DNA from: Cryomorphaceae bacterium
GTDB lineage: Bacteria > Bacteroidota > Bacteroidia > Flavobacteriales > Flavobacteriaceae
Reading direction: 5' to 3'
Assembly (NCBI GenBank): GCA_042091575.1
Contig: JBELHE010000001.1
Span: 1-41,002, forward strand
Length of the DNA: 41,002 nucleotides
Shown one piece after another: positions 5,944-34,865 of the stretch. The first letter of the stretch is position 1. Every line of letters begins with the position of its first letter. Made by a program: the position numbers and the translations under genes. Under the pieces are notes generated by a model. The model did no database searches and was not told where the DNA came from. It worked only from the letters and a program-made list of their open reading frames with translations.

Positions 5944-7129
5944 AAATTATTTCTAAAATTTGTTTTTTTCTAATATCAGAATTATATTTTTTTTGATAAA
6001 AATTTCTAGCATTTTTACCAATTTCATTAAGCTCAAGCTCTGATTGATTTGCAAAATTATTTATTTTTTTTGCTAATTCTAAAAAATCATAATTTTCCTC
6101 AACAAGTCCTGATTTTGATTCCTTAATTATATTAGCCCCCTCACCATTTATAACACCAATTATTGGTTTACCTAAGGCCATATAAGTTTGAAGTTTAGCA
6201 GGTACTGTCATTGAAAAGATCTCTTCGTTTTTTAAAGATAAAAATAATGCGCTTGCCTTGTCAACTATTATAGGTATTTTATCGATTTCAACTTGATCTA
6301 CAAAGGTTGTCCTATTGGTTAATGAATGTTTTTGTAATAAATATTTAAATTTTTCTTTAAACCTTCCATCTCCAACAAAAGTCCAATGTATATTCTTATC
6401 TACAAGCTTAATAGTCTTAATTAAATTATCAAATCCTTGAGCTTTTCCTATATTGCCAGTATAAACTATATTAAATTTATTTGGATTTAATTGTAAACTA
6501 AAGTTTACATCTTTCTTGTTTTTCTCAATTTGGACATCTGCCCAATTTGGATAATAAATTATCTTTCCATCATAACGTTTTGAAATTAAACTTTTAATAG
6601 TTTTTGAACCAACAAGAATTAATTGGTATTTAGAATATATCCAACGCACAATAAGTTTCACAAATAAAATCATAATATTTGATCTAATTGCATCTACTGC
6701 TTTTAGTGACTCAGGCCATATATCAAGGTCCCAAAGTATTTTTTTAGAATTATGGAAAATTGAATAAATCAATGGGTGTATTGCTAAAAAGAACGGGCTA
6801 GTGTGGTGAACGAATATTAAATCATACTTTTTTTTAAATATTGCTAAGTATAATGAAAAGAAGAAGCAAGAAATAAAATATGTAGTGTAATTAATTATAA
6901 GACGAAAATTAGAACCATTTCCTCTAGGAATTAAGAACAACCTATTAATGATTACATTATCTTTAAATATATTCAAATAACCTTTAATTATTTTTCCAGA
7001 TGGATAATTAGGGATTCCTGTAATAACCCTTATATGACTATTTTCAGAAGAAATCCATTGAACTATCTCATTAATTTTAAAGTGCTCAGGGTAAAAGTGA
7101 TTAGTATAAATTAAGATTCTTTTTGCCAA
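5936..7129 (-). CDS. wbuB: GT4 glycosyltransferase, WbuB-like (L-FucNAc transferase type)
   Basis: 397 aa. The N-terminus 'KRILIYTNHFYPEHFKINEI' is typical of WbuB-type GT4 enzymes. It sits immediately downstream of fnlA-fnlB-fnlC, as in known L-FucNAc loci. Confidence 0.7.
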   Translation of the reverse strand: MAKRILIYTNHFYPEHFKINEIVQWISSENSHIRVITGIPNYPSGKIIKGYLNIFKDNVIINRLFLIPRGNGSNFRLIINYTTYFISCFFFSLYLAIFKKKYDLIFVHHTSPFFLAIHPLIYSIFHNSKKILWDLDIWPESLKAVDAIRSNIMILFVKLIVRWIYSKYQLILVGSKTIKSLISKRYDGKIIYYPNWADVQIEKNKKDVNFSLQLNPNKFNIVYTGNIGKAQGFDNLIKTIKLVDKNIHWTFVGDGRFKEKFKYLLQKHSLTNRTTFVDQVEIDKIPIIVDKASALFLSLKNEEIFSMTVPAKLQTYMALGKPIIGVINGEGANIIKESKSGLVEENYDFLELAKKINNFANQSELELNEIGKNARNFYQKKYNSDIRKKQILEIIYE

Positions 7130-19069: not shown

Positions 19070-20449
19070 TTAAATTGAAAAATTTAAATTTTTAATCTGA
19101 ATACTATCTTTAGTGGACATTTCAATAAACGAGGTGTTTGACCCAAAAAGACTTCCAGTTTTAATAGTCTTCCATTTTGTTGCAATAATTGAACCATTAA
19201 ATCTATATAGTTTTTCTTTATCAAATGAAAGGTTTCTAAATCTACCTGGATTAATTAAATCAAGCCCCAACTTACCATAATTGAACATAGGCTCTCTTTC
19301 TTCTTGGACCGAAACAACAGAATCTGAACCAGATACCAATAAATTATTAATGGCTTTGTCAATATGTATTCTTCTTCTATTTATTGCATGTAAACTAAGG
19401 TACATAACTATATCAGGAAAAATTCCAGTCTCTTTAGCATAATGTTCACCAGCAGAAAACATAAAATCTCTTATAGGAATATTATTAGTTTCATTGTCTT
19501 GAGTCCTTAATAATCTTATATGGTTTGGAACTTTATTTTTATTCTCTAATTCCTCAGAAAAATCTAAAACACTTTGACTCTTAGAATAGACAATAAGATC
19601 ATCAATTTCGTTTGACTTTAAAGCATTATTAATAGCAATCTCTAATAGTGATTTGCCTCTAATTTTTTTATATGGAACATTTTTTAAACTAGGATAAGAC
19701 TCTTTAATTGGAATTAAAGCTACTATTTTTAAATTATTTTCTCCAATAGTCTTTTTTCTAATCTCATGAAGAATTTTTGCTCTTGCTTTCAATAATCTAG
19801 AATTATCTTTACTTAGAGATTTATCATGTTGCCTGTAGTAAAATAAAGGTAAATCAATGCTTACAGCTCCTATTTTTTTATAAAGTTTATACCAAAGATC
19901 CCAACCATCTTGGGCATCTACTCCCTCAGAATATCCTCCTGCTATTCTTAGTGACTGTGTTTCAAACATTGTACATGCACCATGAGGAGGTAGTTGACCT
20001 GTTAAATCTTCATCTCCTAGCTTATGTCTTGTTTCAACACCAATAATCTTTCCACTATAATTAGTATAAAAGTAATTACCATAGGCAATACCTGCCTTTG
20101 AATTCTTTTCAAGCTTTTCAACCATTATGAATAACGCAATTTCATTCAACCAATCATCAGCGTCAAGTCTTATCATGTATTTACCATTTGCTTTTTCTAA
20201 AACTTCATTAGCTACTTTTTGAAGGCCTTTTGGTGTTTTATTTTTAATAAAAAATATTCTTGATGGATATTTTTCTTTATATTTTTTAGCAACCAATTCT
20301 GTATTATCATCAGAGCCTTCATCAATTATAAATAGTTCCCAGTTTATATATATCTGATCAACAATACTTTGGATAGACTGATCGAGAAACCTTCCATAAT
20401 TTCTGGACGGAATATAAATTGTAACTAGTGGTGAAGTTTTCATAATCAT
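19070..20449 (-). CDS. Fusion protein: N-terminal GT2 glycosyltransferase plus C-terminal cytidylyltransferase-like (CTP_transf_3-like) domain
   Basis: 459 aa. Residues ~8-215 carry 'VTIYIPSRNYGRFLDQSIQSIVDQ', 'IIDEGSDDNT' and 'RLDADDW' (GT2). Residues ~240-459 carry 'IVALIPIKESYPSLKNVPYKKIRGKSLLEIAINNALKS', which resembles the NeuA/KdsB N-terminus. The usual PAR-GS-K loop is replaced by PIKESYPSLK. Confidence 0.7.
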   Translation of the reverse strand: MIMKTSPLVTIYIPSRNYGRFLDQSIQSIVDQIYINWELFIIDEGSDDNTELVAKKYKEKYPSRIFFIKNKTPKGLQKVANEVLEKANGKYMIRLDADDWLNEIALFIMVEKLEKNSKAGIAYGNYFYTNYSGKIIGVETRHKLGDEDLTGQLPPHGACTMFETQSLRIAGGYSEGVDAQDGWDLWYKLYKKIGAVSIDLPLFYYRQHDKSLSKDNSRLLKARAKILHEIRKKTIGENNLKIVALIPIKESYPSLKNVPYKKIRGKSLLEIAINNALKSNEIDDLIVYSKSQSVLDFSEELENKNKVPNHIRLLRTQDNETNNIPIRDFMFSAGEHYAKETGIFPDIVMYLSLHAINRRRIHIDKAINNLLVSGSDSVVSVQEEREPMFNYGKLGLDLINPGRFRNLSFDKEKLYRFNGSIIATKWKTIKTGSLFGSNTSFIEMSTKDSIQIKNLNFSI

Positions 20450-21507
20450 TTTTTATAATCTATGTCCTTAAAAACTGCCTTTAATGGTTCGATATCTTTT
20501 AGAGCTTTTGACCCTTCCATCTGAGAGAAAAATCTAGCATCTGTTCCAGCTAAAGGTCTCAAACAAATCATATCCTGTTTTTTTATTATTTCTCCCTTTT
20601 TTAAAGGTTTATTTAAATATATAGCACGTCTAAAAGATTTGTGATGATTGTTATCAATCTCCGTTTGTAACAGTTTTTTCTCTGAATTACCTCTAATCTC
20701 ACTAACCAAGTTTATATGATCCTTTAACTCATCAACCTCTTTTTTGGTTAGCGAAACTTTATGATCTCTGAATTTTTTATTTTTTCTATCATCTGTAAAG
20801 TGAAACTCTAAGACATTGGCCCCCATAGTAGCTGCAATTTTGAGTGCATCAATTCCCTCAGTGTGATCTGAATAGCCAACAGACAGTTTAGTAATTTTTT
20901 TGTAATCCAACATAACATCTAAGTGAACATCAGATTCTACTATTGGATACATAGAAGTACATTGAAGTAGACAGATCATTTCTTTGTTTTTATAATTACT
21001 ATCAAGATTTTGAATGAACCCTATCGTTTCAATTACCTCTTCTTTGGTAGACAAGCCTGTTGACAAAATGATAGGTTTTCTTAGTTTTACTATTTCCTTA
21101 ATTACAGGAAAAGCTGTTAAATCACCCGAGCCAATTTTATAAAATTCTACGTATGGATTTATCCAACTTAAATCCTCTGAACTCCATATTGAAGATGTAT
21201 AAAGTTTTCCATTAGAAATACATTTTTTAGCAAGAGCAATATGTTGGCTCTTGGATAATTCAAATTTTTGAAAGTGTTTATGTCTTTTTGGATTCTCAAT
21301 TTTACTTACTAGAGAGTCAGCATTATAAATTTGAAATTTAATTACATCTGCTGCTGAATCTATTGCTAAATCAACTAGTAAATTAGCTTTTTCATAATCT
21401 CCTTCATGATTTCCTCCAATTTCAGCAATTAGTAATGGTCTGTTTAGGCCATTCCAGGGTGAGCTAAATTTACTTTTTAAACTATTATCTAAATATCTAT
21501 TTTTCAA
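20446..21507 (-). CDS. NeuB-family nonulosonic acid synthase (NeuB/PseI/LegI/SpsE type) with C-terminal SAF-like domain
   Basis: 353 aa. 'PLLIAEIGGNHEGDYEKANLLVDLAIDSAADVIKFQ' is the NeuB N-terminal signature. The C-terminal 'LKKGEIIKKQDMICLRP' looks like a SAF domain. Confidence 0.85.
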   Translation of the reverse strand: MKNRYLDNSLKSKFSSPWNGLNRPLLIAEIGGNHEGDYEKANLLVDLAIDSAADVIKFQIYNADSLVSKIENPKRHKHFQKFELSKSQHIALAKKCISNGKLYTSSIWSSEDLSWINPYVEFYKIGSGDLTAFPVIKEIVKLRKPIILSTGLSTKEEVIETIGFIQNLDSNYKNKEMICLLQCTSMYPIVESDVHLDVMLDYKKITKLSVGYSDHTEGIDALKIAATMGANVLEFHFTDDRKNKKFRDHKVSLTKKEVDELKDHINLVSEIRGNSEKKLLQTEIDNNHHKSFRRAIYLNKPLKKGEIIKKQDMICLRPLAGTDARFFSQMEGSKALKDIEPLKAVFKDIDYKK

Positions 21508-23290: not shown

Positions 23291-24016
23291 TTAATTATTA
23301 TTAATATTTGTTGAGAAATTAAGCTCCCATTTATTAGCTATATCTATAATTGACTTTGAGCTTAAATGGATTTTTTGTTCTTTGTGTTTTTCTATAATCC
23401 ACCCTATCTTTCTTAAGTCGTCTTCATTATCTAGAACTAATCTAGTTGAAATATTTTTTAAAAAAATATTTTTATGGTTTACTAAATTAATTTTAAAATT
23501 ATTGTGGTTGTCATAGAAAAACTTTGTGATATGTTCTTTGTCAGAGTTATTTATTATTAAATCATTTACTGAATCTAAAGATTTTACATTGATTATTTCT
23601 GCTGATAAACCAAATGGAACTGATCTAGGGAAAATATTTGTTGTTATATCTGCATCAGAAGTTTTATGGCTAGATAAAAGCTCATCATATATTTTTGAAT
23701 TAATGAAAGGCCTATCTCCACATATCCTTGCAAAATATTTATAACCAAATTTTTTTGATGCCTGAAGAGCTCTATCAATCACATCTTCCTCGCTACCTCT
23801 AAAAACATCTATTCCAAGATCATTTGCAAAGGCTTCAATTTTATCATCTTCATGACTTAATGAAGTAGCAATACATAAATGGTTGATATTTTTTATCTTT
23901 TTAGATGCATCAATTACTCTTTGGAGTAATGTTATTCCATCAATCATTTTTAATGCCTTACCTGGCAGTCTGGTTGAATTCATTCTAGTAAATATGATAC
24001 CTCCAATTATATTCAT
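23291..24016 (-). CDS. Cytidylyltransferase, SpsF-like (CTP_transf_3 family)
   Basis: 241 aa. 'GGIIFTRMNSTRLPGKALKMIDGITLLQRVIDA' matches the SpsF-type 'QARmgStRLPgK' N-terminus. Confidence 0.8.
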   Translation of the reverse strand: MNIIGGIIFTRMNSTRLPGKALKMIDGITLLQRVIDASKKIKNINHLCIATSLSHEDDKIEAFANDLGIDVFRGSEEDVIDRALQASKKFGYKYFARICGDRPFINSKIYDELLSSHKTSDADITTNIFPRSVPFGLSAEIINVKSLDSVNDLIINNSDKEHITKFFYDNHNNFKINLVNHKNIFLKNISTRLVLDNEDDLRKIGWIIEKHKEQKIHLSSKSIIDIANKWELNFSTNINNN

Positions 24017-25509
24017 ACTCGTTTAGAATTAAAATAGCCTTTAAATAATTCATAGATACCTTTAAATTGTATATCATAAAAATCCTCATTTAGAAATTTT
24101 TCAAACCTTAAAGAACTTCTTGAATTTAATAGCCCTATTAAGCTTTCATCTTTAAGCTTGTCCTTTAAAAAATTAGAGATGTGTGTTTTATTAAATATTT
24201 TTTTTGATAATAATACATTGTATTTTAAATCATCTGACCAGTTAAAAGTGTTTGGGCACCCTGAAAACCAACTTTCGCCAAAGATTATAGACTTTTTTTG
24301 TAAAATAGCAGATTCAATGCCTAAGGTCCCTGTAATAGTTGCTGTAAAAACAGATGCCTTTATTAAGTCTAAAGTTTTATAATTAGGACCAAGAATTTCA
24401 ATATTATTTATGTTTTTAAGAAGTCTATAGAATAATGGACTTCGGCCTCTAAAACCATACAATGAGTCATAAAACATTGATGGATGCTCTTTAACATATA
24501 TCTTAATGTTTCTTGGCACAAATTCTCTTAATTTAAGTATTGCTAAAAATTGATCATGAAAAACACCTCCATCTGGTAAAGTTGTTCTTTCTGGTTCATA
24601 GTGAAGCCCAAAATAAACAAACTTATCTGCAAGATTAACATCTGTTGAAACTGAATTATTAATCGCTTTTAATAGGTTAGTCTTTCTAGTCTTAAGTATT
24701 TTTAATTTTCTTATAGCATTAAATTTAAATGGATTTAAAGGGTTATATTCCTTACTTTCATAATAATGATTTTTTGATTTATACTTTCTTAAAATGTCTT
24801 TAACGAATTTAGTTATCTGCTCAATTTTCCAAGAAGTTTTTTTAGATGCTATTCTTTCAATTTCAGTATGAGGTGTTTTATACATTTCATCACTTCCAGA
24901 TATATTATTTACGTAATTATCTATTTCTTTAGATAATTTTTGAATATTCTTCTCATCTAATTTATTATTAATATTTATAGGTTTATGAGTTATTGCATTC
25001 CTAAGTGAAAGGAGTGGTAGTGGCGTCCATGCATTAAATTTTACAGCCTCTATATTTAAAAAATCACATATCTGTAAAATAGTATAGTGAATATGTGTGT
25101 GTGGATTTTCGACTGAAATGAGAACATCAGGAAGGGATTTTTCAAATTTTCCAAGTACCCAAATAACAGTCATATTAAAAATTGACTCTCTATCTAACCT
25201 ACTCATAACTGCCAAGTCATCTATTCTATCCATCATTTTTAATGCTCTATCTTTAGCAATTAAATAGTTTTTTGAAGTAAAAAAATCATTAAATTTTCCG
25301 TGATATTCTTGTTTTAAAATTTTATGAGATTTCCATTTAAAAAAATCAAAATCTTTTACAACATGCGATCCAAATAATTCTTTAGCACGATTAAGATGAT
25401 TATGGTCACCCATCCATAATATTGGCTCAGCTATTTTATCTTCTCTCAACTTGACAGCTAAATCAAACCAGTGATTATTATTAGTCATGAAGTAAACGTA
25501 TTTTTTCAT
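24013..25509 (-). CDS. Hypothetical protein, candidate Capsule_synth (KpsS/KpsC-like) CMP-ulosonate transferase
   Basis: 498 aa. 'FVYFGLHYEPERTTLPDGG....IKIYVKEHPSMF' resembles the conserved core (..lq.epE... then ..vKeHP) of capsule polysaccharide biosynthesis/KpsS-like proteins. It lies between an oxidoreductase pair and the SpsF-like cytidylyltransferase. The match is by eye only. Confidence 0.35.
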   Translation of the reverse strand: MKKYVYFMTNNNHWFDLAVKLREDKIAEPILWMGDHNHLNRAKELFGSHVVKDFDFFKWKSHKILKQEYHGKFNDFFTSKNYLIAKDRALKMMDRIDDLAVMSRLDRESIFNMTVIWVLGKFEKSLPDVLISVENPHTHIHYTILQICDFLNIEAVKFNAWTPLPLLSLRNAITHKPININNKLDEKNIQKLSKEIDNYVNNISGSDEMYKTPHTEIERIASKKTSWKIEQITKFVKDILRKYKSKNHYYESKEYNPLNPFKFNAIRKLKILKTRKTNLLKAINNSVSTDVNLADKFVYFGLHYEPERTTLPDGGVFHDQFLAILKLREFVPRNIKIYVKEHPSMFYDSLYGFRGRSPLFYRLLKNINNIEILGPNYKTLDLIKASVFTATITGTLGIESAILQKKSIIFGESWFSGCPNTFNWSDDLKYNVLLSKKIFNKTHISNFLKDKLKDESLIGLLNSRSSLRFEKFLNEDFYDIQFKGIYELFKGYFNSKRV

Positions 25510-25541: not shown

Positions 25542-26654
25542 TTATTGTTCATTAAAATATTGAATTTTAATGTGTGAAGAATTAAAGTCACCTTTAATAT
25601 CCTTTACTAGTACAGGCTCGTCATATTCTTCATAAGTTCCATCATACCTATGTATAACCTTTGAATTTAATGCATAGACTCTACCAGTGATTATTTTGTT
25701 TAAAGAATCAAAGTTTTGAAGCATTTGTTTTGATGTAATTAAGTCCTTTTCTACATAACCACTACTTCCAATTAATAAGCTATCTTGGGCAAAATGGGTA
25801 AATTCATACCTATGGATTATCTCAGGGAGGTAGTTTTCACTTTTATAGTTCGTATTATTAAAACCTGAAAAAAGAATCAATTTACCCTTTGGTTTTAATA
25901 ACCTAGTACACTCCTCAAATCCTGATGAGCTTGAACATGCCATAACAGTGATGTCAAATTGGTCTCTTACAGAATTATCTAAAATATTTATGTTTGGAAA
26001 TTCTTTAAATATGTCTTTTAAGATTTCCCTCTTCCCATCTGAAGACTCAATAATAAAAATTTTATTTTTATTATTAATTTGATGTAAGTAAAGTGCATGA
26101 AGGCATCCTATTGGACCTCCACCTAATATACCAATAGAAAAATTATTATTTACAATATCTGCTTTTGAAAGGTTCCATGACCTAATTACACATGATAAAG
26201 GCTCTAAAAAAGAGGATAGTTCAAGTTTTATATCAGACACATCATATAGTTGACTCCTACTCACAAACATCATATCACTGAATCCACTTGGCTCGTTATT
26301 ATCTAGACCTGCATGCCTCATTTTTGTACATAAATTTTCAATTTGATTTTCACACGAGATACATTTTTGTATATCATTTCTAGTCAGGCAATTAGAATGT
26401 GGTAAAAGTGCATATTTTTTTTTAGGATAGCTTTCATCGCTTATATACCCTACAGCTTCATGGCCTCCAATAAAAGGTTTGTCATCAGCAGCTGACTTAG
26501 TGAGATTATATCTTCTTCTCTCTGAATTACAAACAGATGAAACTGCCCAGTCAACTTTGATGTCAGACTTATTTTTTTTAGATATTAAAATATCTTTAAA
26601 AAATACTTTTTTTAGTGGCTCAATGACCAATGCATTAACTTTTAATTTATTCAC
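25542..26654 (-). CDS. Zinc-type medium-chain alcohol/sugar dehydrogenase (MDR family)
   Basis: 370 aa. It has 'FIGGHEAVGYI' (GHE motif), a Cys cluster 'CISCENQIENLC' at the structural-Zn lobe position, and 'ILGGGPIGCLHALYL' (Rossmann). Confidence 0.75.
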   Translation of the reverse strand: MNKLKVNALVIEPLKKVFFKDILISKKNKSDIKVDWAVSSVCNSERRRYNLTKSAADDKPFIGGHEAVGYISDESYPKKKYALLPHSNCLTRNDIQKCISCENQIENLCTKMRHAGLDNNEPSGFSDMMFVSRSQLYDVSDIKLELSSFLEPLSCVIRSWNLSKADIVNNNFSIGILGGGPIGCLHALYLHQINNKNKIFIIESSDGKREILKDIFKEFPNINILDNSVRDQFDITVMACSSSSGFEECTRLLKPKGKLILFSGFNNTNYKSENYLPEIIHRYEFTHFAQDSLLIGSSGYVEKDLITSKQMLQNFDSLNKIITGRVYALNSKVIHRYDGTYEEYDEPVLVKDIKGDFNSSHIKIQYFNEQ

Positions 26655-27711
26655 TTTTGATATTATCTATTATAGTTTGAGTATAATTACCATCACTAAA
26701 TTTGGCAATCTTTATACTTGAAAAATCCTTATCAGAAATTTCTTTGACAAAATGGTATAAACAATCAACATGTGCCCTTAACCATCCCGACGTTACCTTG
26801 GGTGGCGGAAAGTCTGATGCGGATTCTTTATCAAAAAAAGCAGGTAATTTTTTAAAGCCTTTTTCTGGAGATTTTACATTATAGTATTCGTAAAAATTAA
26901 GGTTTTCTAAATTCCATTTTACAGCACCTAAAGAACCATGTATTTCAAGTCTAAGTTCGTCAATTGTCCCTGTTGATATTCTTGAGACCTCAATGAAACC
27001 ATCCACATTATCCTTATCTGTTTCACAAAAAATCCAAGAAAAATCATCAACACTTCTGTCTTTAATTTTAGTTTTTAATTTTTTACTTGTAATTCTGAAG
27101 TTTCCAAATAGAAAATATGCTAAATCAAAAACATGAGGACCCAGATCAATTAATGCTCCTCCTGTATTTTGTTTAAGTCTCCAAGTTATTGGTCTATTCT
27201 CTATATAACTCCCATGTAAATATGAAATTCTAAATTTAAAAATTTTTCCAAGTATTCCATCTGAAATCATTTCTTTGATTTTTGATATTGCAGGTATAAA
27301 CCTATATTGAAAAACTACATTAGAAATATATCTTTTGTTTTTATTGGCAATTTGTAGCATTTTTTCAGATTCAGATTTATTTAAACCAATAGGTTTGTCG
27401 CAAAGCACATGTTTTTTTGATTCAATAGCTAACCTGTAATGTTTGTAATGCAAATCATTTGGTGTGCCAATATATACAGCATCAATAGATTCATCATTTA
27501 AAATATCGTTAATATCTATAGTCACATTTTCAATATTGTATCTATTTTTAATTCTTTTTATATCATCCAGAGATTTTTTATCAGATAACAACAAACTTTT
27601 TACTACAACCCCAGGTATATCTGGATAAAAGTCATTCAATACTTTCGATGCGTGTAAATATGTCTTACCCATAAAACCAAAACCAAAAACTGCTATGTTA
27701 AGTTTTTTCAT
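26647..27711 (-). CDS. Gfo/Idh/MocA-family NAD(P)-dependent oxidoreductase
   Basis: 354 aa with 'LNIAVFGFGFMGKTYLHA', 'DAVYIGTPNDLHY' and 'HVLCDKPIG' (the EKP-like motif). Confidence 0.85.
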   Translation of the reverse strand: MKKLNIAVFGFGFMGKTYLHASKVLNDFYPDIPGVVVKSLLLSDKKSLDDIKRIKNRYNIENVTIDINDILNDESIDAVYIGTPNDLHYKHYRLAIESKKHVLCDKPIGLNKSESEKMLQIANKNKRYISNVVFQYRFIPAISKIKEMISDGILGKIFKFRISYLHGSYIENRPITWRLKQNTGGALIDLGPHVFDLAYFLFGNFRITSKKLKTKIKDRSVDDFSWIFCETDKDNVDGFIEVSRISTGTIDELRLEIHGSLGAVKWNLENLNFYEYYNVKSPEKGFKKLPAFFDKESASDFPPPKVTSGWLRAHVDCLYHFVKEISDKDFSSIKIAKFSDGNYTQTIIDNIKSE

Positions 27712-27713
27712 AA

Positions 27714-28604
27714 TTATCTTCCTTTTGTTCTAGATAAAGTTTTTAATTCAAAATCATAAATTTTTTTATTTCCATCTCCAAGTGCAAGCTCAAAATCTTT
27801 AATAGAGTTAATCATAATTTGCATCCCTCTCGGTTCCAATGACATTGCTTGATCTGTACCCCACATGGCTCTATCTAAGGTTACATGGACTTCAGTAATA
27901 TTAGAACCATAAGCAACTGACATTGCCGTTATTAAAGGAGATGTGTGATGAGATGAAAATCCAACAGGTAATTTAAACCGAGATTTTAACTCTTTAATTA
28001 CTTTCAAATTAAGTTTATCACTTGGGCATGGGTATATACTTGTACATTGCATCAATGCAATCTTTGAATCTTTTAAATTTTTTAATATTTCAGAAATTTT
28101 ATTTAAATCTGTTCCACCTGTTGATATAATCAATGGAATTTTAACTTTCTTCAAATATTGGATGAAATTTTCATCAGAACATTTATCAGAAGGCACTTTT
28201 AAAAAAGGAATATTATAGTTAGTAAGAAAATCTATTGACTCTATATCCCATGCAGAAGCAGACCAATCAATTTTAAGTTTTTTGCAATAATCATCAATCT
28301 CATCATAATCAGATTTAGACAATTCAATCCTTTTTTTATAATCAAAATATGTCATTTCACCCCAAGGTGTCATTCTTAAATTATTTCTTTTATTTTCTGG
28401 AACACATAACTCTGGAACTCTTTTTTGAAATTTAACACAATCAAAACCAATTTCACTACTTATCATGATAAGTTCTTTTGCAAGCTTTATGTCACCATTG
28501 TGATTAATGCCAATTTCAGCAATATTATATGACTTTTCATTACCTGCTTGAAAAATGTTATTGAAACTAAATTGATCTCTGTTTTTTTTATTTATGTAAC
28601 TCAT
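27714..28604 (-). CDS. NeuB-family ulosonate synthase, short form without SAF domain
   Basis: 296 aa. It has the 'YNIAEIGINHNGDIKLAKELIMISSEIGFDCVKFQKR' NeuB signature. The protein ends about 50 aa earlier than 20446..21507 and has no SAF-like tail. Confidence 0.85.
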   Translation of the reverse strand: MSYINKKNRDQFSFNNIFQAGNEKSYNIAEIGINHNGDIKLAKELIMISSEIGFDCVKFQKRVPELCVPENKRNNLRMTPWGEMTYFDYKKRIELSKSDYDEIDDYCKKLKIDWSASAWDIESIDFLTNYNIPFLKVPSDKCSDENFIQYLKKVKIPLIISTGGTDLNKISEILKNLKDSKIALMQCTSIYPCPSDKLNLKVIKELKSRFKLPVGFSSHHTSPLITAMSVAYGSNITEVHVTLDRAMWGTDQAMSLEPRGMQIMINSIKDFELALGDGNKKIYDFELKTLSRTKGR

Positions 28605-28614
28605 AACTTATATT

Positions 28615-29310
28615 TTATTGTATTTTAAACTTTGATTCTGCAATTCTCCAGTCTTCGTCAGAATCAATGTCTACTACCTCATTATTTTTCAAAATTAGAG
28701 GAATTATTTTTTTTCCTGATACTGAGCCAGACATTACAGTTTCTCTTCTAATAATTTCTAAGTCTCCTGCAGAGTAGAAAGTTTCTGGTAATTTTTGTCT
28801 AGGTATATTGTAGGGTTCTAGAATATTTTTTTCATAACCTTGAATATAGTCTCCCTTTGGTTCCCAGTGCCTGTAGGGGTGTTGTTCTGACACTGAAACC
28901 GCTTTTAATGAAGAGGCATTAGAATCATTTTGAATCATTTCCAACCCTTTTTCAATCAAATTAGAAGGTCTTAAAGGAGAAGTAGGTCTTAACAAAATAA
29001 TAATGTGAAATTTCAAGTCATATAATTTTTCACAATTAATTAGAGCATGATAAATAAAATCATAATCTTGTGAAATATCTTGTGAAATATCTTTAGGTCT
29101 GAGAAAGGGTACCTCCCCACCATACTTCTTGGCGATTGCTGCATATCGTCTTGAATCTGTAGATATTACAGTTTTTGTAATTAACTTACATGATTTAGCA
29201 TACTCAATTGTATGGGCAATAAGAGGTCGATCAACAAAGATCTTAATATTTTTATCTTTAATTTCTTTACTACCTGACCTTGCTGGAATTACACATAAGA
29301 TATTTTCCAT
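28615..29310 (-). CDS. neuA: Acylneuraminate cytidylyltransferase (CMP-ulosonate synthetase, NeuA type)
   Basis: 'MENILCVIPARSGSKEIKDKNIKIFVDRPLIAHTIEYA' is the canonical NeuA N-terminus. I start it at the ATG at 29310 (Met15 of the track ORF). That leaves a 10-nt gap to the upstream gene, whereas the track start at 29352 gives a 32-nt overlap. Confidence 0.85.
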   Translation of the reverse strand: MENILCVIPARSGSKEIKDKNIKIFVDRPLIAHTIEYAKSCKLITKTVISTDSRRYAAIAKKYGGEVPFLRPKDISQDISQDYDFIYHALINCEKLYDLKFHIIILLRPTSPLRPSNLIEKGLEMIQNDSNASSLKAVSVSEQHPYRHWEPKGDYIQGYEKNILEPYNIPRQKLPETFYSAGDLEIIRRETVMSGSVSGKKIIPLILKNNEVVDIDSDEDWRIAESKFKIQ

Positions 29311-29320
29311 ATTTGAATAA

Positions 29321-29608
29321 TTATATTTCTTCAATTCTTTTGGTTTTATCACAAATTAAAAGATCGTAAGGGGGCTTTTCTCCAACCGATAGATGGTGAA
29401 ATTCACATCCCCATAATTTTAACTGATTAAAAGTTAACTGATAATAATCTTTTTTTGATACTGACCCTCTAGCAGTCCAATAGGTTATCCTATTATTTTT
29501 ATAAAGAGTGTTTATTTTCATAATATTTTCTTTTATGGGCACTGAATTTTCATAATCGAGGCCTTTAGTTATACATATAGTATTATCTATATCCACATAA
29601 ATGTTCAT
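29321..29608 (-). CDS. Minimal capless HAD-superfamily phosphatase (capsule-biosynthesis phosphatase-like)
   Basis: 95 aa. All four HAD motifs can be placed: 'YVDIDNTI' (DxDxT), 'YWTARG' (Thr), 'GEKPPYD' (Lys) and 'LLICDK' (acidic). The layout resembles small sugar-phosphate phosphatases found in capsule loci. Confidence 0.55.
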   Translation of the reverse strand: MNIYVDIDNTICITKGLDYENSVPIKENIMKINTLYKNNRITYWTARGSVSKKDYYQLTFNQLKLWGCEFHHLSVGEKPPYDLLICDKTKRIEEI

Positions 29609-31404
29609 AAACTTTGGATTTGAGTTAGTCTTTTAAAAGTTGATCTTGATCTTGATTTTAATTCATTAAATGTTCCTGAATCAAGGATTTTTCCTTCATC
29701 TATTAGATAAATCTTATCAACATTTCTGATGGTAGAAAGTCTGTGCGCTATAATGATAAGAGTTGTTCTCCCTTGTAGCTCATTAATGCTCTGTTGAATT
29801 TTATTTTCAGATTCTGAATCTAATGAGCTAGTAGCCTCGTCTAAAATTAACACACTTGGATTTCTGTAAAGTTCTCTTGCGATGAATATTCTCTGCTTTT
29901 GACCACCTGAAAGTAAGACTCCTCTATCTCCAATTTTTGTTTCTAAACCTTCAGGTAGGGAGTCAATAAAATCTATAATGTTAGCTTTAATTGCAGCTTT
30001 TCTTATCTTGTCTAATGATTCTTTCTTATTATTTCCTTGCCACATTGAGATATTATTCGCTATGGTATCATCAAAGATTATATTGTCCTGTGAAACATAC
30101 CCGATTTGATCTCTCCAGGTTGAAATTTTTATATTAGAAAGTGATACTCCGTCTATTAATAATGTTCCTTTAGTGGGTTGTATTACATATGAAAGTAAAT
30201 CAACAATTGTTGTTTTTCCTGAGCCTGATTTGCCAATTAAAGCAATTGATTTTTTATATGGAATTTCTAGATTAATAGAGTCTAAAATAATTTTTGATTC
30301 TTCATTATAACTGAATGTAACATTTTTAAATATGATTTTATTTTTAAAGCCATGTAAAGATTTATTTCCATCATTGAATTGATTTTTTTCCTGATTTTGA
30401 AATTCTTTATCTACCAATTCCATACTTCCTATTGTATCAAAAGTTGCTTGAAATGCAGCTTGAAATGCCAAAGTTGAATTTAAAGCTCTATAAAATAATG
30501 CAATTGAAACAAAAATAGGTTCGAGATTTAAGCTAAACACAACTAACTGAACATATACAATTAACATAATTAAAACTACTGCAATAGGCTCTCTTAATGA
30601 TGTTGTAAAGGCACTTGCTATTCCAGATTTAATTTGATTATTTGTCAAAATGGATATAGAATTATTAATATTAAAATCGAACTTACTAATTTGATTTGTC
30701 GCGGATAAGTATTTAAAACCATAGAGAAATTGAATCAACGATTTTGTGAGAGATCCATTTTCTTTTGCAGTTTCCCTTGACAAGTTTTGGACAAAAGAAT
30801 TTAATCTCATAAATAACAATACTAATATGACACCAACAATTAGTGACATTATTCCAAATGAGAATGCCATTGTAAAAGCTAAAGTTATAAGAACTGTAGT
30901 ATTGATTAGATGTGATCCTAAATTTGTTAACTGCATAAAAGCCAAAAGTGATCTTGTTGGCTGTTCATTTATTACATTAATAAATTCTCCTGTATTCTTT
31001 GATGTATAGTACTTATAAGTCATGGAAGAATATAAATTATATATTTTCACTTTAATCTCTTTTAGAAGTTGACCCAAAAGATTTGCCTTATATCCAAGTG
31101 CAAAAAAAGTCATTAAACCTTTTAAAATAAACGCACAGCTAATTAGCAATAAAATAGAAGTAATTGATTCAGATAAGCCAATGAAACTTAGAATCCTTGA
31201 TAATATATCATTAATGAAATGACTCTCTTGTTGAACCCCTGAACTATCTAGGGACTCTAAGAGTGGTAATAGCATTAAAATTCCAATACCCTCAAAAACT
31301 GAAGCAATTATCCCAAGTATGAAAACTATATAAATTCTCATACCTAAATATTTTTCAAATATTTTTAGGTAATCAACTATATCATATAGAGGTTTAAACA
31401 TCAT
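29605..31404 (-). CDS. Fused TMD-NBD ABC exporter (MsbA/PglK-like half transporter)
   Basis: 599 aa. The N-terminal half has six hydrophobic segments. The NBD carries Walker A 'GKSGSGKTT', signature 'LSGGQKQR', Walker B 'LILDEATSSLD' and H-loop 'IIIAHRLST'. Confidence 0.9.
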   Translation of the reverse strand: MMFKPLYDIVDYLKIFEKYLGMRIYIVFILGIIASVFEGIGILMLLPLLESLDSSGVQQESHFINDILSRILSFIGLSESITSILLLISCAFILKGLMTFFALGYKANLLGQLLKEIKVKIYNLYSSMTYKYYTSKNTGEFINVINEQPTRSLLAFMQLTNLGSHLINTTVLITLAFTMAFSFGIMSLIVGVILVLLFMRLNSFVQNLSRETAKENGSLTKSLIQFLYGFKYLSATNQISKFDFNINNSISILTNNQIKSGIASAFTTSLREPIAVVLIMLIVYVQLVVFSLNLEPIFVSIALFYRALNSTLAFQAAFQATFDTIGSMELVDKEFQNQEKNQFNDGNKSLHGFKNKIIFKNVTFSYNEESKIILDSINLEIPYKKSIALIGKSGSGKTTIVDLLSYVIQPTKGTLLIDGVSLSNIKISTWRDQIGYVSQDNIIFDDTIANNISMWQGNNKKESLDKIRKAAIKANIIDFIDSLPEGLETKIGDRGVLLSGGQKQRIFIARELYRNPSVLILDEATSSLDSESENKIQQSINELQGRTTLIIIAHRLSTIRNVDKIYLIDEGKILDSGTFNELKSRSRSTFKRLTQIQSL

Positions 31405-34085: not shown

Positions 34086-34508
34086 TTATTTCTTTAGTAA
34101 CCAGGAAGATGATTGTATTTTGTTTCCAAGCTCATCGATTAGTTTAATTTTCAACTTATTACAAATTTCAAATTCTGGAATATTTATGTTGGTTTGATCC
34201 CCTCCATTTGCAAAAAAAAGATCATATTTTTTTGAATAATTATCAAATATCAGCTTTATTGAATTACAAACACTTGAATCTTTATCTATCGAGATAAATG
34301 CTTTATCGACAATCCTAAGTTCCTCTATAATAATCTTTCTTTCATCTTCAAGCATAAATTCTTTTGTTCCCTTTAATTTTCTTTGATAATCATTGTTAAT
34401 TATTACAAACAGATAGTCCCCCTTTTCTTTAGCCATATGAAAATATTCTATATGTCCTTTATGAAGAGGATTAAAATAACCTGAAACAATTATTACTTTT
34501 TTCTTCAT
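34086..34508 (-). CDS. Small cytidylyl/adenylyltransferase of the HxGH nucleotidyltransferase family (TagD/RfaE-domain-II-like)
   Basis: 140 aa with 'VIIVSGYFNPLHKGHIEYFHMAKEKGDYLFV' (HxGH motif) and a C-terminal 'KIQSSSWLL' (ISST-like motif). The substrate cannot be told from the sequence. Confidence 0.75.
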   Translation of the reverse strand: MKKKVIIVSGYFNPLHKGHIEYFHMAKEKGDYLFVIINNDYQRKLKGTKEFMLEDERKIIIEELRIVDKAFISIDKDSSVCNSIKLIFDNYSKKYDLFFANGGDQTNINIPEFEICNKLKIKLIDELGNKIQSSSWLLKK

Positions 34509-34865
34509 TTATTGTCGTTTATAATCATCCTCAATTCTTATTATATCATCTTCACCAAAGTAGGTCCCTCTCTGCACTTCAATAAATACTAATTTATTTT
34601 TACCAGTATTTTTAATTCTGTGCTTGGAACCTGTTTTAATTTGAATAGTATCGCCTTCTAAGCATAAAATATCTTTACCCTCTATTGTAACAACACTCTG
34701 TCCCTGAATAATTATCCAAGTTTCATGTCTATATTTGTGAAATTGATAAGACAAACGTTGTCCAATTTCAACCTCAATTCTTTTTATTTTATACTTTTCA
34801 TTTTCATCAAGTATAAAATATCTACCCCATGGCCTTTCTTCCATATTTATAATATTATTGCTCAT
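34509..34865 (-). CDS. Stand-alone cupin matching the type II phosphomannose isomerase domain of ManC
   Basis: 118 aa with 'ERPWGRYFIL', 'LSYQFHKYRHETWIIIQG', 'GSKHRIKNTG' and 'FIEVQRGTYFGEDDIIRIEDDYKR'. These follow the C-terminal PMI domain of bifunctional GMP/PMI enzymes. No GMP domain is present. Confidence 0.8.
   Translation of the reverse strand: MSNNIINMEERPWGRYFILDENEKYKIKRIEVEIGQRLSYQFHKYRHETWIIIQGQSVVTIEGKDILCLEGDTIQIKTGSKHRIKNTGKNKLVFIEVQRGTYFGEDDIIRIEDDYKRQ

Follow-up and report, generated by a model that had tools for sequence, protein, structure and literature searches.

A minimal HAD phosphatase beside NeuA and a SAF-less NeuB in a marine Flavobacteriaceae polysaccharide locus: core of a candidate phosphorylated ulosonate pathway

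Does a bacterium that places a 95-residue haloacid dehalogenase (HAD) phosphatase directly before a CMP-sugar synthetase (NeuA) and a phosphoenolpyruvate (PEP)-condensing synthase (NeuB) make its ulosonic acid through a phosphorylated intermediate? The question is raised by three adjacent genes in the 41,002-nucleotide stretch of DNA analyzed here, referred to as the window (contig JBELHE010000001.1, positions 1 to 41,002, of the Cryomorphaceae bacterium assembly GCA_042091575.1). An earlier reading made from the letters of the window alone, the sequence-only reading, had suggested that the trio follows a Kdn-9-phosphate (Kdn-9-P)-type route. We examined gene content, conservation, fold, gene fusions, neighborhoods and phylogeny, and from these we infer every substrate and the order of the steps. 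We assign a probability of roughly 0.58 to the reading in which the trio forms the core of an ulosonic-acid pathway of the Kdn-9-P type, with the minimal HAD replacing the usual KdsC-family phosphatase. There is reasonable support for a phosphorylated intermediate, and comparative genomics favors the proposed succession of synthase, phosphatase and CMP activation; the sugar may be Kdn or a relative. We regard the trio as varying a known pathway rather than as a system of a new kind. The ORFs of the trio and the stand-alone cupin were confirmed as the sequence-only reading described them. The three genes of the trio are:

29321 to 29608, minus strand: 95-aa minimal C0-type HAD phosphatase related to AfhF and TIGR01689, proposed to act on an ulosonate omega-phosphate of the Kdn-9-P type
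28615 to 29310, minus strand: NeuA-type CMP-ulosonate synthetase (CTP_transf_3, PF02348)
27714 to 28604, minus strand: 296-aa SAF-less NeuB-family PEP-condensing synthase (PF03102), whose proposed substrate is a sugar phosphate

The trio lies in a polysaccharide locus that forms one long run of minus-strand genes, about 560 to 35373 of the window, in DNA of about 28% G+C. The genes are tightly packed: the stop codon of an ABC exporter gene and the start codon of the HAD gene overlap as ATGA, spacers of 10 nt separate HAD from NeuA and NeuA from NeuB, and 2 nt separate NeuB from the next gene. These junctions are operon-like. The true NeuA start is probably the ATG at 29310, 10 nt past the HAD stop, rather than the listed GTG at 29352. 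The source is a metagenome-assembled genome (MAG) of 1.44 Mb in 105 contigs, 82% complete, and the closest relatives of the window genes come from uncultured marine Bacteroidota/Flavobacteriaceae. The head of the locus, in the order winged-helix protein, phosphomannose isomerase (PMI)-type cupin, 140-aa nucleotidyltransferase and UDP-glucose dehydrogenase (Ugd), is found on the window contig (C1) and on contigs C4 and C47 of the same MAG, with fragments on C83, C85 and C87; the MAG also holds eight NeuB-family genes. These multiple copies point to a population bin of a hypervariable glycan locus, in which strain heterogeneity leaves per-cell copy numbers uncertain.

The phosphorylated route is supported because three observations converge on it: the displacement of a KdsC/KDN-9-P-phosphatase-type enzyme, the fusions of the HAD family, and the NeuB phylogeny. 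The reference system is that of Bacteroides thetaiotaomicron, where BT1714 is described as KDN-9-P synthase and BT1713 as KDN-9-P phosphatase, followed by CMP activation (as summarized in PMC6200933). Like that pathway, the trio is proposed to combine a NeuB-family synthase acting on a sugar 6-phosphate and PEP with a dedicated C0-type HAD and a CTP_transf_3 enzyme, with no NeuC. A sister locus on C47 of the same MAG has the same head, a NeuA and a SAF-less NeuB 47% identical to that of the window. Its HAD is a 154-aa KdsC-family protein, the sole KdsC-family gene found in the MAG, and the model that it matches best is the KDN-9-P phosphatase of B. thetaiotaomicron (NF058599, 3.5e-28, 98.8 bits; TIGR01670, 94 bits). 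No small HAD was found on this 12.5-kb contig. The window phosphatase, unlike BT1713, is not of the KdsC/YrbI family, yet it stands one gene from NeuB, and equivalent pairings of NeuB with KdsC-type HADs occur on C47, in locus L113 and in 20 of 29 Bacteroidota loci. In L113, a 408-aa CTP_transf_3-Hydrolase_3 fusion lies directly upstream of a SAF-less NeuB 45% identical to the window's, with a Gfo gene nearby; this NeuB is found on many contigs.

The Bacteroidota counts come from a survey of 300 genomes, more than 100 of which encode a NeuB 41-48% identical to that of the window. Among the 29 NeuB loci that were fetched, 20 have a KdsC-family gene within 1.5 kb of the window-clade NeuB, and all ten such neighbors tested match the KDN-9-P phosphatase model best, at 139-159 bits, above the KdsC subfamily cut-off. 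We considered whether the pairing of SAF-less NeuB with KdsC could be a housekeeping Kdo route and rejected this: all five genomes checked (four of them single-contig) also hold a KdsA with its own, separate KdsC beside it, and the NeuB-linked copy is therefore a second, dedicated phosphatase. KDN-9-P phosphatase equivalogs scoring above their cut-off occur in six genomes, each time beside a NeuB.

Two further arrangements were observed. A cassette of a short-chain dehydrogenase/reductase (SDR), a KdsC-like HAD, a SAF-less NeuB and a membrane FA_hydroxylase occurs in L117, L118, L122, L136 and about 20 similar Bacteroidota loci; of 63 genomes from one Bacteroidota family, 57 have the cassette or its NeuB beside normal KdsA/KdsC, and we found no description of the cassette's product. 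On contig C61 of the source MAG (L110, G000:C61, 889-6122), a 628-aa NeuB, extended at its C-terminus by about 290 aa, neighbors GmhA, a CBS-HddA kinase, a GmhB-like HAD and a sugar-phosphate epimerase-like TIM-barrel protein. The GmhB-like HAD was considered as a third type of NeuB-linked phosphatase and rejected, as it sits with GmhA and HddA in an ordinary GDP-heptose set.

As the sequence-only reading had it, the 95-aa protein carries all four HAD motifs: DIDNT at residues 6-10, T45-A-R47, K78 and C86-D87. Among 120 close and 150 distant homologues, residues D6, D8, T10, T45, R47, G48, K78, D82 and D87 vary little or not at all, and position 86 is Cys in 116 of the 120 close and Asp in 101 of the 150 distant ones. 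A word-indexed search retrieved 1,988 clusters of homologues at E <= 1e-3, almost all 95-104 aa long and mostly from marine metagenomes; an exhaustive HMMER search gave 899 representatives at 50% identity. The AlphaFold2 model, built from a 72-row alignment (pLDDT 87), has a four-strand Rossmannoid core (residues 2-6, 40-45, 72-75 and 83-85) with a flap hairpin. On these sequence and model data the protein is a genuine, whole member of an enzyme family with a minimal HAD core and predicted activity. The sequence-only reading had named failure to fold as a HAD core, or descent from a longer gene in relatives, as evidence against its proposal; the model shows the core, and the relatives have the same full length. 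If functional, it had been expected to rank with the smallest HADs, and it is shorter than every solved match returned, the nearest of which have 121-134 residues.

The expected kinship with BT1713-type phosphatases did not hold. Matching the family profile to solved structures retrieved 9iqw at E 1.8e-25, far beyond chance, and 1xpj at E 4e-14. Foldseek likewise placed the model closest to 9iqw (E 9e-6, TM 0.77, 33% identity) and then 1xpj, followed by HisB-N, GmhB and T4 Pnkp; nearly all of the best matches are HADs. The KdsC/BT1713 structures 3e81 and 4hgo matched at E of about 0.07-0.08 and TM 0.41-0.43, a generic fold similarity only. NCBIfam returned no KdsC or KDN-9-P phosphatase model at E <= 0.01, and Pfam returned no match for the protein. 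By sequence, therefore, the 95-aa HAD is a relative of the AfhF/TIGR01689 type and not of the BT1713/KdsC type, its closest relatives being AfhF (9iqw, a D-arabinose-1,5-bisphosphate phosphatase), Vibrio cholerae 1xpj and TIGR01689, the "EcbF-BcbF capsule biosynthesis phosphatase" model. The TIGR01689 match covers the N-terminal 37 residues only and scores 21.9 bits against a cut-off of 162, below the NCBI rule for membership. With AfhF and 1xpj the window HAD shares the motif layout DxDxT...TAR...GKP...(D/C)D, but it is 30-40 residues shorter and has neither their N-terminal extension, nor the insert of about 7 residues after motif II, nor the C-terminal helix. AfhF, from phage HY126, is reported to be a Mg-dependent enzyme that removes the distal phosphate from arabinofuranose-1,5-bisphosphate before UDP activation (PMC13326640). 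Unlike AfhF, which keeps company with a kinase and a uridylyltransferase, the window HAD sits with NeuA and NeuB.

Gene fusions tie the family to ulosonate and sugar-phosphate enzymes. Small HADs are fused to CTP_transf_3 in both orders (P0262, P0283, P0326 and P0287), to NeuB (P0371) and to a PMI-type cupin (P0336 and P0345, the former encoded directly after a CTP_transf_3 gene). In Prochlorococcus (L062), a fusion to a GmhA-like SIS domain follows directly on a 282-aa SAF-less NeuB. Other fusions join the HAD to Cupin_2 (P0250 and P0269) or to a TagD/RfaE-II-like CTP_transf_like domain (P0330 and L100). A 710-aa transketolase with a small HAD domain at its C-terminus (P0315, residues 609-696) was also observed.

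To describe the neighborhoods of the family we sampled 85 HAD-anchored loci from many phyla, and about 20 of them have a NeuB within five genes of the small HAD. Two contexts recur, which we call type A (ulosonate genes) and type B (a four-gene cassette, described below). In the type A loci of Flavobacteriaceae, a KpsS/C-like gene of about 500 aa is followed by the HAD and a SAF-less NeuB; in a Thermoplasmatales locus (L091), NeuB, a cupin and CTP_transf_3 stand together and the HAD lies four genes further. Similar sets occur in Melainabacteria, Spirochaetaceae, Pacearchaeota, Pelagibacteraceae, Acholeplasmataceae and marine archaeal MAGs. Across the three locus variants of the window's own population the HAD is always among ulosonate genes. 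The variant on C4 reads KpsS/C-like protein (511 aa), HAD (96 aa) and NeuB (290 aa). That on C70 (L013, G000:C70, 3506-6675), shared with L111 (9135-12304), reads NeuB, Gfo, medium-chain dehydrogenase/reductase (MDR), DegT, CTP_transf_3, iron-dependent alcohol dehydrogenase (Fe-ADH), HAD (101 aa) and a 583-aa protein. We take its pair of Fe-ADH and aminotransferase to follow the KdnB/KdnA logic of Kdo8N, and by this analogy the variant may make a terminally aminated ulosonate after dephosphorylation.

The synthase is proposed to act on a phosphorylated substrate, but its lack of a SAF domain is no sign of one. In the window NeuB, PF03102 covers residues 46-280 (8.4e-64, 215.7 bits) and nothing follows the domain; Pfam returned no SAF match, so that the 296-aa SAF-less NeuB described before is confirmed. 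The protein scores 221.7 bits against TIGR03569 (NeuB_NnaB; cut-off 399.65), aligning to positions 3-272 of 329, and 166.7 bits against TIGR03586 (PseI), under the cut-off of 340.25. The metal ligands H219 and H240, the PEP-binding residues K58 and K136, and E30, E238 and D251 are kept, while E134 and F112 of the Neisseria meningitidis enzyme correspond to K141 and W119. The architecture and length are those of the 290-aa SAF-less family member of PDB 6ncs, which shares the catalytic His, Lys and Glu in a modest pairwise match (E 3.5e-26). The absence of SAF does not mark the phosphorylated route: among the six NeuBs adjacent to KDN-9-P phosphatase equivalogs, three have 344-345 aa and match the 329-position NeuB_NnaB model over its whole length, and two lie next to CTP_transf_3-KdsC fusions. 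About 30% of nonulosonic acid synthases in UniProt have no SAF domain (PMC8208679); its absence is common and not diagnostic. Common to the SAF-less clades are invariant R62 and R245 and a longer beta2-alpha2 loop (TPWG, R77, K/R90), none of which is found in SAF-bearing paralogues. From the alignment, these are candidate phosphate-binding or closure elements.

The gene content around the synthase agrees with a phosphorylated substrate. No hydrolyzing epimerase of the NeuC type lies alongside the window NeuB, the sole Epimerase_2 gene of the window being part of an FnlABC-like set, and no other source of a free aldose (LegG or PseG type) was found beside it. A second NeuB-family gene in the window (20446-21507, 353 aa) is very divergent and belongs to a module with a carbamoyltransferase and an SpsF-like cytidylyltransferase.

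A quick maximum-likelihood tree of 77 NeuB-domain sequences (LG+C20+F+G4, SH-aLRT support) places the window NeuB in a 52-row clade of phosphatase-linked NeuBs (SH-aLRT 96). Members include the NeuBs of C47 and L113, KdsC-adjacent Bacteroidota NeuBs, and small-HAD-adjacent NeuBs from Prochlorococcus, Pelagibacteraceae and Thermoplasmatales. Two neighboring clades contain the NeuBs that accompany KDN-9-P phosphatase equivalogs, with more small-HAD-adjacent NeuBs scattered among them; in this context-labelled tree the window NeuB falls in a sister clade and not inside them. The three clades jointly (SH-aLRT 90) stand apart from the NeuC-adjacent NeuB/LegI-like paralogues, such as the 343-aa protein of C4 (389.8 bits on TIGR03569), and from the PseI-like paralogues of C84 and C100. 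A position within LegI/PseI had been named as evidence against the phosphorylated route; the synthase lies outside these groups, as far as an unrooted tree with context labels can place it. Of all Bacteroidota NeuBs in the tree, the second one of the window sits on much the longest branch (3.07 substitutions per site). Compared with the B. thetaiotaomicron KDN pathway, then, the window synthase is SAF-less and belongs to a sister clade of the BT1713-equivalog partners, and the locus carries additional Gfo and MDR redox genes.

These redox genes and the other neighbors of the trio suggest where its product could go. They are:

26647 to 27711, minus strand: Gfo/Idh/MocA oxidoreductase (Pfam matches), a probable redox tailoring or epimerization partner
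25542 to 26654, minus strand: zinc alcohol dehydrogenase/MDR-like dehydrogenase (weak ADH_N; NCBIfam idonate/threonine dehydrogenase matches)
24013 to 25509, minus strand: 498-aa KpsS/KpsC-like (Capsule_synth-like) protein, candidate ulosonate transferase (6mgb, Atlas)
34509 to 34865, minus strand: stand-alone PMI-type cupin of 118 aa at the locus head (PF01050, 1.4e-32), possibly a fructose-6-phosphate to mannose-6-phosphate isomerase
34086 to 34508, minus strand: 140-aa TagD/RfaE-II-like nucleotidyltransferase paired with the cupin (TIGR00125, 1.9e-13; rfaE_dom_II, 6e-13)
29605 to 31404, minus strand: ABC exporter with fused transmembrane and nucleotide-binding domains (PF00005 and PF00664)

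We propose that the SAF-less NeuB would first condense PEP with a sugar phosphate from central metabolism, for which mannose-6-phosphate, possibly supplied by the PMI-type cupin, is the leading candidate. The terminal phosphate of the NeuB product would then be removed by the presumably Mg-dependent 95-aa HAD, and NeuA would convert the free acid to the CMP-sugar. The Gfo/Idh/MocA and MDR dehydrogenases would tailor the sugar, the 498-aa KpsS/KpsC-like protein would transfer it to a glycan, and the ABC transporter would export that glycan. NeuA matches PF02348 at 77.6 bits (1.5e-21), its N-terminal VIPARSGSK fits the P-loop-like IPARxGSK motif, and its best NCBIfam model is PseF (145.6 bits, below the cut-off of 205.7). 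The MDR-like gene overlaps the Gfo gene by 8 nt. A Gfo/Idh/MocA gene adjoins a NeuB of the same clade in a Marinimicrobia locus, where the Gfo/Idh/MocA and MDR pair recurs, and lies near NeuB in L113; a gene of 370-374 aa occupies the MDR position in L001-L003, L111 and contig C70. The 498-aa protein matches KpsC (6mgb) at E 0.07 and has an Atlas feature score of 0.98 to Capsule_synth clusters, and from its sequence it looks like a KpsS/KpsC-type ulosonate transferase.

The cupin, which corresponds to the C-terminal PMI domain of ManC-type enzymes, had been linked to the trio as a possible source of mannose-6-phosphate. That link stands in part: the cupin heads every locus variant of the MAG, C47 included, and is not specific to the trio, but the HAD-cupin fusions do connect the two families. 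No manA gene turned up in the 82%-complete MAG, and the PMI-type cupins are therefore its only PMI candidates, within the limits of an incomplete genome.

The cupin and the nucleotidyltransferase paired with it are also the basis of the strongest alternative, one that we consider unlikely but that is a live rival. The HAD would here serve these two genes at the locus head in the manner of GmhB or AfhF, removing the distal phosphate from a sugar 1,omega-bisphosphate before an NDP-sugar is formed; it would stand beside NeuA and NeuB by chance, or would serve both pathways. AfhF, the only characterized relative of the HAD, performs just such a GmhB-like distal dephosphorylation (PMC13326640). The type B cassettes show the corresponding gene set, namely a cupin, an HldA-like kinase (a relative of the heptose-7-phosphate kinase 4e84), the small HAD and a CTP_transf_like nucleotidyltransferase, in Chlamydiales, Paceibacterota and a marine archaeal MAG labelled Methanobacteriota (L029, 2311-4257; L042, 4085-6730; L097, 4856-6644). 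By analogy with the GmhB/HldE pathway of ADP-heptose, type B resembles a route to an NDP-sugar in which a cupin stands in for GmhA and the small HAD for GmhB. Homologues of the 140-aa nucleotidyltransferase are fused or adjacent to small HADs in L100, P0330, L029, L042, L097 and L041, HAD-Cupin_2 fusions point in the same direction, one of them adjoining an HldE-like gene, and the HADs of the cassettes are as close to the window HAD (54-61% identity) as are NeuB-adjacent HADs. From these sequence comparisons the small HAD family looks like a general remover of distal sugar phosphates before nucleotide activation, in HldE-like NDP-sugar cassettes as well as beside NeuB.

The setting of the window HAD nevertheless differs from that of the cassettes. 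In contrast to the GmhB/HldE pathway, no homologue of the type B kinase turned up in either the window or the 82%-complete MAG, and the HAD's neighbors are ulosonate genes. The cupin-nucleotidyltransferase head is present on C47, on whose 12.5 kb the small HAD was not found, and in the three locus variants the HAD lies among NeuB, CTP_transf_3 and KpsS-like genes, at least 4.5 kb from the head. Two further occurrences of the family are recorded here. In a set related to type B, the HAD-Cupin_2 fusion of L104/L105 (4545-7696) lies near an HldE-like PfkB + CTP_transf_like gene, on a contig with DUF5899, DUF1796 and HtrL_YibB; we take these domains to be typical of giant viruses and the contig to be giant-virus-like. 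The contig of L041 is labelled as coming from a Prochlorococcus single-cell assembly; there the small HAD and, after it, a 131-aa nucleotidyltransferase (6001-6683) belong to a run of many small ORFs that looks phage-like.

Classical bacterial NeuB, LegI and PseI use non-phosphorylated sugars, and the capsule polymerase of Haemophilus influenzae type b carries a phosphatase module. It is conceivable, though distinctly improbable, that the SAF-less NeuB likewise takes a free sugar and that the HAD acts elsewhere, for example by working with the KpsS/KpsC-like protein to trim a phosphate from a sugar already added to the growing glycan. The gene for a KpsS/C-like protein of about 500 aa is indeed the most constant neighbor of the HAD, standing directly upstream of it in seven Flavobacteriaceae-type loci, two of which (L023 and L026) have no adjacent SAF-less NeuB. 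TIGR01689 is named for a capsule biosynthesis phosphatase, and some HAD-linked NeuBs carry SAF beside NeuC (L102). A free-sugar synthase, however, leaves unexplained both the fusions of the HAD to NeuB, CTP_transf_3 and sugar-phosphate isomerases and the use of a KdsC-type enzyme in its stead within the same NeuB clade, and the window NeuB has no aldose source of the NeuC, LegG or PseG type alongside. That the 95-aa ORF has decayed or lost its activity, as its length below that of all solved relatives (121-134 aa) and the Cys at the first acidic position of motif IV might hint, is highly improbable given about 2,000 clusters of full-length 95-104-aa homologues with the catalytic columns kept, the retention of Cys86 itself in 116 of 120 close homologues, and a confident prediction of the HAD fold.

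Several observations weigh against the Kdn-9-P-type pathway that we prefer. Both the HAD subfamily and the clade of the window NeuB are known from sequence alone, and motif IV of this subfamily has a Cys in place of its first acidic residue. HldE-like cassettes are just as usual a setting for the HAD family, and sequence identity cannot tell the two contexts apart. The NeuB tree is unrooted, was made by a quick method and contains a few long branches; it rests on context labels and left out BT1714, the Prymnesium parvum Kdn-9-P synthase, human NANS, and characterized LegI and PseI. The closest relative on a long contig, from Marinimicrobia, has a NeuB 74% identical to that of the window in the order NeuA-NeuB-Gfo, with no adjacent HAD. 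Finally, the KdsC-type neighbors of the nearest NeuB clade score below the 180-bit cut-off of the KDN-9-P phosphatase equivalog, and sit there in the SDR/FA_hydroxylase cassette; the sugar may therefore not be Kdn.

A broader proposal is tentative and, in our estimate, doubtful. In it, the 95-aa HAD, though below the size of every solved HAD that was matched, would have full activity as an ulosonate-phosphate phosphatase and would repeatedly have displaced the KdsC-type enzyme in Kdn-like pathways of abundant ocean lineages and their viruses (Flavobacteriaceae, Pelagibacteraceae, Prochlorococcus, SAR116, and marine archaeal MAGs labelled Methanobacteriota/Thermoplasmatales). Its product would be a previously undescribed tailored deamino-ulosonate, redox-epimerized by the Gfo and MDR enzymes or, in the sister locus with DegT and Fe-ADH, terminally aminated. 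If the Kdn-9-P-type reading is right, the phosphorylated route to sialic acid-type sugars, as in eukaryotes and Bacteroides, would be far commoner among environmental microbes than the textbook NeuC/NeuB scheme suggests, and its phosphatase step would have been filled at least twice independently. The family would also provide enzymologists with a minimal HAD scaffold, and would give an annotation handle for thousands of "hypothetical" genes of 95-130 aa in glycan loci of marine bacteria, archaea and phages.

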